Shown here in pieces: positions 3,175 through 5,800 of a stretch of 64,000 nt of DNA. The stretch is from Escherichia phage EJP2. The stretch's first letter is position 1; the number at the start of each line of letters is the position of its first letter. The notes beneath the pieces are model-generated. The model was not told where the DNA came from. It did no database searches and saw only the letters and a list, made by a program, of their open reading frames with translations. Both the position numbers and the translations under genes were made by a program. The stretch lies in the sequence record OQ411014.1; one strand, 5' to 3'.

Positions 3175-5800
3175 CTTATTTGATGATGATGATTTTCAGG
3201 GTGAAGATTATTCTCGTACGAAAAAACCTGGGGTAAAGATCGACTATACCCCAGAAATGATAGAAGAGTTACGTAAATGTAAAGAAGACCCAATTTACTT
3301 CATGGAGAACTATTTCTATATTGTAAGTAAAGGTGGTGAAATACTTTTCAAACCTTATGAGTACCAAAAGCAGATGGTTCGAAACTTCCAGAATTATACG
3401 AACAACGTAATGCTAACTGCTCGTCAGATGGGGAAAAAATTAGTAAACAGTACACCAATATTAACTCCCCACGGATTCACAACGATGGGTGAATTGAAAG
3501 TGGGTGATGTGATTTATGGAGCCGATGGTAAGAAAACTACAGTTAATTACATAACTGATCCTAACGACCAATTGAAACTATATGATATAAAATTTAGTAA
3601 TGGTGAAACAATCACTGCATGTGAGGATCATCTATGGAACATCAGTACCACTGATTGGCATCGTTATGGTAATAAGGTAAAAACCCTTAGTACTAAAGAA
3701 ATGGTCCACTTACTAAACAAACTAAGTTCACGTACTAAACCTTCCCGTATGTTCATTGAGCATACAAAGGTGGTAGAATTTGACGAACAGCATGTTCATA
3801 TTGATCCATATATTCTTGGTCTATGGTTGGGAGATGGTCATTCTGCTAACCACAGAATAACTCACCATGTGGATGATTATACATTTTATAAAGAATGCTT
3901 GAACGAAAATATTAGCGAGTTCAAACTTGATAACAGAACCGAATGTACAGGTTACAGTAACTTAAATTTCGAGCATCATTATTCTCTTAAAAATAATAAA
4001 CACATACCGCATGAATATATATACAATAGTGTTCATGTACGTACTGAGATCCTAAAAGGATTGATGGACACTGATGGTTATTGTAGTATAGACGGTAATA
4101 CCCAGCAGTTTTATAGTTCAAACAAACATTTAGCTGAGGCAGTACGACTCATATTATCAACTCTTGGTATTAAGAGCACAATTACGTTTAAAGATAATGA
4201 CCACAAAGGATGTTATGTAGTTACCTTCAGTACTAGTGTTGAGGTATTCAAACTACCAAGAAAGTTGGAACGTCAGAAGAGTCGCCAATGTGATCATCCA
4301 AAAAATCACCGCTTGTATATTGAAAGTATTACTGAATCAACAAGTACTGAAATGGGGCGTTGCTTACAGGTTGATAACGAAGACCACCTATTTTTATGTG
4401 GAGAAACATTGATACCCACACATAACACAACCGTTGCAGCAGCCTTTATACTATGGTATGCTATGTTCAATGATACTAAGACTATCCTACTTCTTGGTAA
4501 CATTTTAAGTACTGCAAAAGAAATCATGGAACGTATTCAGTTCGCATATGAAATGTGTCCTGACTTTATCCGTGATGGTGTTGTAAAATATAACGTACAA
4601 ACTGTACACTTCGAAAATAAATCACGTATCATTGCACGTGCGACTACTCCGTCCGCTGCTCGTGGTCTATCTGTAAACTTACTATACCTTGATGAATTTG
4701 CATTCGTACAAGAATCTTACCAGTCTGAATTCTGGTCAGCAGTATCACCAACACTTGCATCTTCAGATGGTAGATGTATAATCACTAGTACGCCGAACAC
4801 CGAATACGACCAGTTCGCTACTATATGGTATGAATCACAATCTCACGTTATGGAAGACGGTACTCAATTGGATGAAGGTGGTCCAGGTAAAAACGACTTC
4901 AAAGGGATACAGGTTACATGGGATTGGCATCCAGATAGAGATATCGAATGGGCTAAGAAAGAAGAATACAAAATTGGTACATCTAAGTTTAAGCGTGAAT
5001 ATAACTGCGAATTCGTAACGTACCAAGAAACACTAATCAACAGTGTTAAGTTAACTGAAATTAAATCCAGAACAGTACGGGAACATATCAGACAAACTGA
5101 TGATGTACGATGGTTTAAACCTATTGAGTACGGAATGACGTACTGTGTTGCACTTGACCCTGCTGGTGGTACTGGTGGTGATGATGCAGCTATACAAGTT
5201 TATGAACTCCCCACAATGCGACACGTTGCAGAATGGAGACATAACATGTTCCGAATACCTGAACAGATTAAACTCTTGCATAGGATTCTATCCGAACTGG
5301 CTTATCAAATGCATAAGTTAGGTGCAAAAAATATCGAAGAACACTTGTACTGGTCAATTGAAAGTAATACAATCGGTGAAGCAGCAGTACTGGAGATTCA
5401 GCACATAGGTATTGATGCATTCCCTGGAACATTAATTAATGAACCAAGACGTACTCGTACTGGTAAAATCCGTAAAGGTATGGTAACGACACGTAGTACT
5501 AAAAAGACTGCTTGCTTCCATATGCAAAAGCTAATGGAGACATTCAGGATGGAAGTTGCAAGTAAAGCACTACATAGACAGTTGAACGATTTCATACGTT
5601 CTGGTACTGAAGATGGTGTCTTTAAAGCAAAACTAGGTATGAAAGATGACTTAGTATCTGCGGCGTTGTTAATTGTGAGAATGTTTGATATCATTGCGAA
5701 ATTCGAAGACAACACTGCTGAAGTAATGCGTGAAACCTTAGAGGAACACGATGAAACATACTTCATGCCGTTGGGATATCTAATGTCTTACAACAGATAA
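3164..5800 (+). CDS. terminase large subunit (T4 gp17-like) interrupted by an intein
   Basis: YQKQMV..ARQMGK Walker A split from [11 protein letters not shown] by a 330-aa insert; downstream LLYLDEFAF Walker B-like and C-terminal [12 protein letters not shown] nuclease-domain similarity to gp17. Confidence 0.9.
3437..4426 (+). mobile_element. intein with LAGLIDADG homing-endonuclease domain, in frame inside the terminase gene
   Basis: Insert between GK and TT of the Walker A P-loop; ends in canonical His-Asn followed by Thr; two LAGLIDADG-type blocks ([11 protein letters not shown] and [11 protein letters not shown]); N-terminal boundary approximate and first residue non-canonical (Lys). Confidence 0.8.

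Follow-up and report, generated by a model that had tools for sequence, protein, structure and literature searches.

A probable class 3 LAGLIDADG intein beginning with lysine in the terminase large subunit of Escherichia phage EJP2

Can a protein insert whose first residue is lysine be a working intein? The question is raised by the gene for the large terminase subunit (TerL) of Escherichia phage EJP2, located in a 64,000-nucleotide stretch of sequence record OQ411014.1 (hereafter, the window). The gene is a single open frame throughout, without a frameshift, and its product carries an insert of 330 amino acids (aa) within the ATP-binding Walker A motif, or P-loop. A previous sequence-only reading took the insert for an intein with two LAGLIDADG-type blocks, and offered three explanations for its initial Lys: that the splicing chemistry is unusual, that the junction is shifted, or that the intein has degenerated. 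The comparisons presented here make it highly probable that what interrupts the gene is a mobile intein of class 3, equipped with a LAGLIDADG endonuclease and situated at the classic P-loop site of a T4 gp17-type TerL. Lys1 itself appears to be a rare variant at a freely varying position, and not a sign of new chemistry, a wrong junction, or decay. Feature coordinates are collected in Table 1.

The boundaries of the insert are fixed by intein-free relatives. The TerL proteins of Erwinia phage Hallingskeid (547 aa, 90% identical) and of E. coli phage 121Q (gp4; 545 aa, 77% identical) both lack an intein and have an uninterrupted ARQMGKTTVAAAF. Aligned with these proteins, the EJP2 precursor shows a single clean 330-column gap between the invariant residues K91 and T422, and the insert is therefore assigned to residues 92–421; it begins with Lys (AAA), ends in His-Asn, and is followed by Thr (ACA). 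This junction cannot be moved, because other placements delete the Walker A Lys or leave extra residues inside G-K-T. The insert is thus in frame and absent from orthologs, and its removal restores a conserved host motif, as expected of an intein. This extein alignment, which had been suggested by the sequence-only reading, confirms that reading's coordinates exactly (3437–4426, between ARQMGK and TTVAAAF). The same holds for its placement of the insert inside the GKT loop—between the Lys and Thr of Walker A, as the orthologs and T4 gp17 both indicate—and for the His-Asn terminus, the Thr that follows, and the initial Lys.

Two alternative explanations bear directly on these junctions. The insert might belong to a class 1 intein with a shifted junction (starting, for example, at Ser6/Thr7 of the insert), or the Lys codon might be an artefact of sequencing through the GGGGAAAAAATT run; a Ser and a Thr do lie 5–6 residues downstream, and the Lys codon does fall within an A6 run. 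However, a start at Ser6 would leave KLVN in the P-loop (GKKLVNTT), where the intein-free orthologs and T4 gp17 read GKTT, and all orthologs align at GK/[AKM]L (a slash marks a splice junction or insertion point). An artefact is likewise opposed by the open frame and by a metagenomic homolog, P0019, which independently has GK/KL. With the junction so fixed, position 1 lacks the Cys, Ser, or Thr that would characterize class 1. This explanation is extremely unlikely, and the intein-free orthologs and the T4 gp17 alignment rule it out. The second alternative, also raised in the sequence-only reading, is that this terminase lineage carries the insert as a native domain and not as a mobile element. 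In-frame insertion, and nothing more, speaks for such a domain, but the alignment shows the opposite, with a clean gap in orthologs that are 90% and 77% identical; homologous inserts follow GK in unrelated proteins, and the insert has HINT and LAGLIDADG folds (see below). We attach a vanishingly small probability to a native domain, which the intein-free orthologs refute.

Removal of the insert in silico yields a spliced TerL of 548 aa (63.6 kDa), residues 19–519 of which align with the T4 gp17 structures 3ezk and 3cpe (E 6e-40). In this alignment, the restored ARQMGKTTVAAAF lies on SRQLGKTTVVAIF, the Walker A motif of gp17 in 3ezk/3cpe. The score of the Pfam Terminase_6N model also rises, from 36.8 bits for the precursor to 55.2 bits after in-silico splicing. 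The match to Pfam PF03237 and the gp17 structure alignment place the host protein in the T4 gp17 type (Terminase_6), comprising an N-terminal ATPase with Walker A, Walker B, and C-motif, and a C-terminal nuclease. The N-extein ends in ...TARQMGK, the first half of Walker A; the C-extein contains what we take to be Walker B (LLYLDEF), the C-motif (TSTPN), and the nuclease domain, names assigned from the T4 gp17 alignment and from established knowledge of gp17. Thr+1, with which the C-extein begins, doubles as the Walker A Thr and, by prediction, as the second splicing nucleophile.

Table 1. Positions of the intein, its host gene, and neighboring features in the EJP2 window; the last row refers to the compared locus sequences of relatives
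Feature	Position	Strand	Details and evidence
TerL (T4 gp17 type) precursor open reading frame (ORF)	3164..5800	+	878 aa, 101.7 kDa; stop codon included; Pfam Terminase_6N
N-extein	3164..3436	+	Residues 1–91; GK codons 3431–3436; alignment with intein-free Hallingskeid and 121Q TerL, and with T4 gp17
Insert, probable class 3 (WCT) intein with LAGLIDADG homing endonuclease	3437..4426	+	Residues 92–421; 330 aa, 990 bp, 38.1 kDa; His-Asn end 4421–4426
Block A	3437..3475	+	Family consensus A-L-x-x-D-T-P-I-L-T-P-x-G; position 1 Lys (3437–3439), non-nucleophile
Block B	3602..3643	+	Cys62 B:7, His65 B:10, Trp67 B:12; gap-free alignment of residues 5–70 with M. chimaera DnaB1 (MchDnaB1, 6rix) 5–70
His65	3629–3631		Aligns with MchDnaB1 His65
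Trp67 (W of WCT)	3635–3637		Aligns with MchDnaB1 Trp67
LAGLIDADG homing endonuclease domain	3779..4321 (boundaries approximate)	+	Pfam LAGLIDADG_3, Hom_end; Foldseek PI-SceI, PI-PfuI, I-DmoI
Block F	4352..4399	+	Cys309 F:4, predicted initiating nucleophile
Cys309 (C of WCT)	4361–4363		Aligns with MchDnaB1 Cys124 and M. smegmatis DnaBi1 (MsmDnaBi1) Cys118
Block G (TLIPTHN)	4406..4426	+	Thr328 G:5, His329 penultimate, Asn330 terminal
Thr328 (T of WCT)	4418–4420		Aligns with MchDnaB1 Thr143
His329	4421–4423		Aligns with MchDnaB1 penultimate His144
Asn330	4424–4426		Aligns with MchDnaB1 terminal Asn145
C-extein	4427..5797	+	Residues 422–878; starts with Thr+1 (ACA, 4427–4429)
RNase H-like 5'-3' exonuclease	1007..1993		Upstream of terminase
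Two small ORFs	Between exonuclease and terminase		
225-aa ORF	2497–3174	+	Directly 5' of TerL
Virion structural protein	5833..7125		phrog_13484
Two ORFs	7365..8426 and 8512..9630		Positions of single-stranded DNA-binding (SSB) protein and UvsX/RecA-like recombinase in Hallingskeid, BF17, and 121Q
Extra-C site, compared locus sequences	L003 (BF17) 3488–3525; L005/L006/L007 ~585–620; L008 ~588–623		

The identification of the insert as an intein with two LAGLIDADG-type blocks is upheld by matches to DnaB inteins, by Pfam, and by the predicted fold; it appears to be a full-length intein, with a homing endonuclease that is apparently intact. In a phmmer search of the PDB, its best relatives of solved structure are the class 3 DnaB mini-inteins of M. 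chimaera (6rix/6riy) and M. smegmatis (6bs8), with E values of 3.7e-16 to 2.4e-14. Each of these mini-inteins matches both parts of the insert (N-terminal residues 5–70 and C-terminal residues 296–330), in gap-free HMMER alignments. The middle of the insert matches Pfam LAGLIDADG_3 (E 2.6e-11; 44 bits against a cut-off of 22.5) and Hom_end (26.2 bits against 21.1). For a wider comparison, 120 homologs of the insert were gathered and key columns tallied, some of which contain gaps (denominators 116–119). A hidden Markov model (HMM) of the family built from homologs scores 372.7 bits (E 2e-113) at this locus and at no other in the window, and these matches go well past what chance would produce; scanning the window with this model recovered no second intein of the same family. 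Both LAGLIDADG motifs, LGLWLGDG (motif 1, 3815–3838) and LKGLMDTDG (motif 2, 4052–4078), keep the acidic residue, and among homologs with a residue at these positions the motif Asp is conserved in 110/117 and 108/119, respectively.

An AlphaFold model of the insert and 10 flanking residues, generated from a 72-sequence alignment, has a mean predicted local distance difference test (pLDDT) score of 93.4. Foldseek matches this model over its full length to PI-SceI, TliVMA, and PI-PfuI; the HINT part resembles 6bs8/6riy (template modeling [TM] scores of 0.72–0.82, normalized by target), and the central endonuclease part resembles I-DmoI. A HINT fold is supported by the DnaB-intein matches, by the fold match to PI-SceI and 6bs8, and by the HN/T sequence at 4421–4429. 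The motifs, Pfam hits, and Foldseek matches together mark the central part as a double-motif LAGLIDADG endonuclease fold with predicted cleavage activity.

Class 3 inteins are defined by a non-nucleophilic residue 1, a Trp-Cys-Thr (WCT) triplet at B:12/F:4/G:5, and Ser or Thr at the +1 position (Tori et al., PMC2807308); their hosts include helicases and the large terminase subunits of phages, and most of their sites lie within ATPase P-loops (PMC2807308). Biochemically, the class is marked by an obligate block F Cys nucleophile, a branched thioester intermediate on that Cys, and N-terminal cleavage that continues in +1 mutants (PMC2807308), a hallmark not shared by classes 1 and 2. The EJP2 insert shows all three features: Lys at position 1, W67/C309/T328 as the triplet, and Thr+1. 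In MchDnaB1, His65 and Trp67 are catalytic, and Cys124, His65, and Thr143 form a protease-like triad buttressed by Trp67 (PMC7664689); the counterparts of the block F Cys are Cys124 in this intein and Cys118 in MsmDnaBi1 (PMC7664689, PMC6195587). Further block F residues studied in the class 3 prototype are also kept in EJP2 (Asp313, His317, and the aromatic Phe319). These positions are nearly invariant across the homologs: His at B:10 in 118/119, Trp at B:12 in 118/118, Cys at F:4 in 117/119, Thr at G:5 in 118/119, His at G:6 in 118/119, and Asn at G:7 in 117/119. The +1 residue is Ser in 66 of the 120, Thr in 39, and Cys in 12, and the −1 residue is Lys in 114, preceded by Gly in 109.

A class 2 (KlbA-like) pathway, in which Thr+1 attacks the N-terminal junction directly and Cys309 is only structural or assisting, would also accommodate a non-nucleophilic position 1, and the first attacking atom cannot be told from sequence alone. 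However, inteins of class 2 have no WCT triplet and usually show Asp at F:4 (PMC2807308; PMC7664689), whereas in EJP2 F:4 is Cys, and the complete triplet occurs, with hardly any variation across the family. The closest solved relatives are experimentally class 3, and the block F Cys is obligatory in the class 3 prototype (PMC2807308). A class 2 pathway is thus distinctly unlikely, and is rejected on the WCT signature.

With the class 3 assignment, the initial Lys ceases to be anomalous, because class 3 inteins start splicing from the internal block F Cys and not from residue 1. Within block A, constraint is weakest at position 1, and Leu2, Thr6, and Pro7 are conserved. Among the 120 homologs it is Ala in 101, Gly in 8, and Lys, Met, Asp, Glu, Pro, Ser, and Cys in one each, with 4 gaps; it is thus non-nucleophilic in 114 of the 116 with a residue there. 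Close relatives vary at this position as well: Lys occurs in EJP2 and in the metagenomic P0019 (76% identical), Met in P0001 (66%), and Ala in phages fENko-Kae01, RaK2, JNE01, and UE-S1. Such variation among close relatives is what would be expected of a residue 1 that takes no part in catalysis. Of the three explanations first proposed for Lys1, the unusual chemistry appears to be the right one, though this chemistry has already been described as that of class 3 (PMC2807308); a shifted junction is excluded by the intein-free orthologs, and degeneration is made unlikely by the retention of all catalytic residues and by purifying selection.

Several points weigh against a functional class 3 intein in EJP2. 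Lys1 is rare, being found in 1/120 homologs, a rarity that rests on the present tally of this set, and position-1 substitutions lowered splicing yield in the prototype class 3 intein (PMC2807308). Generic intein models remain sub-threshold on the insert (PF14890, 15.3 vs. 35.8 bits; TIGR01445, 16.8 vs. 24.5 bits), as do the PT-HINT and Hint models, and intein membership therefore rests on the PDB homologs, the family alignment, and the fold; the intein-profile search suggested by the sequence-only reading thus failed for generic profiles and gave strong support through PDB intein matches and the homolog-built HMM. The estimate of selection is rough: comparison with the fENko-Kae01 ortholog gives a nonsynonymous divergence (pN) of 0.21 and a synonymous divergence (pS) of 0.71 (omega ~0.1), with synonymous sites close to saturation. 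Finally, a literature search found no experiment on the EJP2 intein or on any terminase intein of the RaK2 group.

The pN and pS values are similar in the splicing part, the endonuclease part, and the exteins. This purifying selection provides indirect support for the maintenance of both intein activities, and bears on a further alternative, namely a degenerate, non-splicing intein, with the terminase either working with the insert in place or encoded by a dead gene. The rarity of Lys1 in the family and the sub-threshold scores of curated intein HMMs would fit such decay, but H65, W67, C309, T328, H329, N330, and T+1 are all intact, selection on both intein parts is strong, and the metagenomic relative P0019 also has Lys1. 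Moreover, the insert splits the Walker A GK from T in a gene that is normally essential, the large terminase, and no second TerL was seen within the window. A degenerate intein is therefore very unlikely.

For a class 3 intein, a splicing pathway can be proposed from the sequence, its steps modeled on those described for the prototype and for MchDnaB1 (PMC2807308; PMC7664689). In the 101.7-kDa precursor, the split Walker A (GK/T, Lys91/Thr422) would prevent the ATPase site from forming. The intein would fold as a HINT domain, in which an N-S/N-O acyl shift at residue 1 would be impossible with Lys. Instead, the Cys309 thiol, held in a Cys-His-Thr triad with His65 (B:10) and Thr328 (G:5) and buttressed by Trp67 (B:12), would attack the Lys91-Lys92 peptide bond to give an internal branched thioester. 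The N-extein would then be transferred to the Thr+1 hydroxyl, cyclization of Asn330 would free the 38.1-kDa intein, and an O-to-N shift would produce the native Lys-Thr bond of a 63.6-kDa TerL with an intact GKT. The freed intein would act as a site-specific endonuclease; in mixed infections it would cut intein-less terminase alleles at ...ATGGGnAAr/ACnAC..., and recombinational repair would copy the intein into the cut allele (homing). That splicing and DNA cleavage actually occur we infer from the conserved sequence features.

The distribution of the intein among relatives is patchy, as expected of a homing element. Hallingskeid, the closest relative (90% extein identity), lacks it, as does 121Q; fENko-Kae01, RaK2, JNE01, and UE-S1 carry it, with extein identities of 75–78% and intein identities of 56–70%. 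No compositional foreignness is apparent, with guanine-cytosine (GC) fractions of 0.355 for the intein, 0.363 and 0.393 for the exteins, and 0.383 for the window, and thus no signal of recent import. More distant family members occupy the same GK/T site in further phage terminases, namely those of the T4-like Krischvirus phages ELT3 and ECD7, of Synechococcus phages B3 and B23, and of Rhodobacter, Gordonia, Bacteroides, and Mycobacterium phages. A total of 841 phage records match the intein at E<1e-3, and nearly all of the 120 homologs are placed after a P-loop "GK"; homologous inserts after GK also occur in unrelated proteins, including dCTP deaminases and helicases.

Many of the homologs P0050–P0120 are placed after "EGK" in annotated dCTP deaminases (EGK/A...THN/SSLGRLG), an enzyme that is not a P-loop ATPase. 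This placement suggests that the family has switched exteins, with a target sequence resembling GK-S/T as the guide. The WCT family also includes a Cys+1 (THN/C) subgroup, consisting of P0009, P0010, P0013–P0018, P0020, P0023, P0024, and P0027; the original survey of class 3 met Cys+1 only as a rare exception (PMC2807308). In several of these Cys+1 proteins (~360 aa), an initial MGK leads straight into the intein, and the displayed alignment window shows only ~5 aligned residues beyond THN, which may reflect minimal or odd extein contexts or truncated gene calls.

The Walker A codons also carry an irregularity among intein-free relatives. In 10 Asteriusvirus records (BF17, WPEC3, WPEC5, Ecwhy_1, TH47, EC.P1, fEgEco12, Turkey3, vB_Ec-M-J, and CMSTMSU), the intein-free terminase has one extra C at this site (CGT CAG ATG [C] GGA AAA ACA ACC GTT), 6 nucleotides upstream of the intein insertion point. 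The extra C (ATG[C]GGAAAAACAACCGTT) puts ARQM and GKTTVAAAF in different frames, and as a result annotations split the gene into two overlapping "terminase large subunit" coding sequences. Downstream of the extra C, these records differ from 121Q only by changes that are synonymous in the shifted frame. Because CMSTMSU differs at neighboring sites, a single copied error does not account for the set, and the insertion looks real. These data suggest either recoding (a programmed +1 frameshift) in an essential gene or a variant that destroys the intein homing site. An exact 24-mer scan of IMG/VR returned no match to the BF17-type extra-C site, and a literature search found no instance of it.

The known systems closest to the EJP2 intein in mechanism are the class 3 inteins, whose prototype is the mycobacteriophage Bethlehem DnaB intein (PMC2807308) and whose solved examples are MsmDnaBi1 (6bs8, PMC6195587) and MchDnaB1 (6rix/6riy, PMC7664689). 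The EJP2 intein shares with these the non-nucleophilic residue 1, the WCT triplet, the B:10 His, the His-Asn C-terminus, and Ser/Thr+1, as well as insertion in a P-loop just before a Ser/Thr that also serves the mature active site. Its host protein, however, is a terminase and not DnaB, and its first residue is Lys, as compared with Pro in Bethlehem and Ala in most of the relatives found. An endonuclease is missing from the solved DnaB examples, which are mini-inteins; the EJP2 intein, like that of Bethlehem, carries a full LAGLIDADG domain. The class 1 inteins PI-SceI and PI-PfuI have the same two-domain plan of HINT with an inserted LAGLIDADG domain and provide the best full-length structural matches, but they start with Cys1, follow the class 1 pathway, and are only 14–16% identical in sequence.

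Among terminases, the nearest counterparts are the inteins of RaK2-like jumbo phages: RaK2 gp111, K64-1, fENko-Kae01 ENKO_304, JNE01, and UE-S1. The EJP2 and RaK2-group inteins have the same architecture and site (ARQMGK/...THN/TTVAAA) and the common blocks ITACEDHLW and RCLQVDN..HLFLCG..LIPTHN; the RaK2-group orthologs start with Ala, whereas the EJP2 intein starts with Lys. The phage CBB paper mentioned Hint and LAGLIDADG domains for the RaK2 and K64-1 large terminases without assigning a splicing class (PMC5259590). ENKO_304 of Klebsiella phage fENko-Kae01 (locus 2393–5011), an 872-aa intein-containing terminase with Ala1, is annotated only as "hypothetical protein," probably because standard intein HMMs miss the splicing domain; automated annotation probably misses the splicing domain of this intein family more generally.

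Mycobacteriophage TerL inteins (Kelley et al., 2016, PMC5050341; Gosselin et al., 2025 preprint, 10.1101/2025.01.02.630785) offer a further comparison. Inteins of TerL cluster within its ATPase domain, and class 3 inteins with LAGLIDADG are common in TerL (PMC5050341; 10.1101/2025.01.02.630785). The TerL1-a site, which separates the invariant P-loop Lys from the nucleophilic Thr, was described as the classic location of P-loop inteins, and the same study showed splicing for representative TerL inteins and cleavage of intein-less alleles for two of them (Kelley et al., PMC5050341). The EJP2 intein matches the insert in the annotated terminases of phages LittleE and Omega (E 1e-36). It differs from the mycobacteriophage cases in that its host is a T4-type Terminase_6 protein, as compared with Terminase_1 in most actinophage cases, and in its Enterobacterales jumbo phage host range; intein identity is only ~32%.

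The gene neighborhood is typical of the packaging/replication module in RaK2/121Q-like jumbo phages. The closest genomes in the phage collection are Erwinia phage Hallingskeid and Asteriusvirus phages, at only 75–82% nucleotide identity. The 225-aa ORF directly 5' of TerL overlaps the terminase start by 11 nucleotides. It is "hypothetical" in all relatives and has a weak PHROG match (phrog_5989, E 1.7e-4) to a family labeled terminase large subunit; in T4-like phages, the small terminase gene sits directly upstream of TerL. No transfer RNAs were found within the window.

The precursor has no intact P-loop, and for this reason packaging can soundly be argued to depend on splicing. The further proposal of the sequence-only reading, that splicing is a built-in control point for packaging, may be entertained only as a hypothesis carried over from other inteins. 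A candidate regulatory residue is Cys62 (3620–3622), a clade-specific residue adjacent to the active site and the B:7 residue of the RaK2 group: ITACEDHLW is found in 5/5 orthologs examined, whereas B:7 is Asp in 102/120 homologs. The class 3 intein MsmDnaBi1 undergoes reversible oxidative inhibition through a Cys48-Cys118 disulfide that includes the catalytic Cys (PMC6195587), and zinc inhibition of this intein is reported (PMC7360933). By analogy, the EJP2 intein might be kept as a conditional packaging switch in addition to being a selfish element, with a Cys62-Cys309 disulfide or metal site pausing maturation under oxidative or zinc stress, though we consider this unlikely; conditional splicing, if true, would constitute a post-translational timer on DNA packaging.

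Published work already covers intein domains in the terminases of RaK2 and K64-1, as well as class 3 inteins at terminase P-loops, and no new mechanism is implied here; the EJP2 intein is only slightly unusual, in its Lys1 and in the B:7 Cys common to the RaK2 group. For annotation, the gene is to be read as a single intact TerL with a mature length of 548 aa, and not as hypothetical, oversized, or fused. The intein adds a natural Lys1 variant to class 3 and extends the family to another enterobacterial jumbo phage. EJP2 and Hallingskeid, with exteins that are 90% identical, form a well-matched intein-plus/intein-minus pair that is useful for studies of homing.

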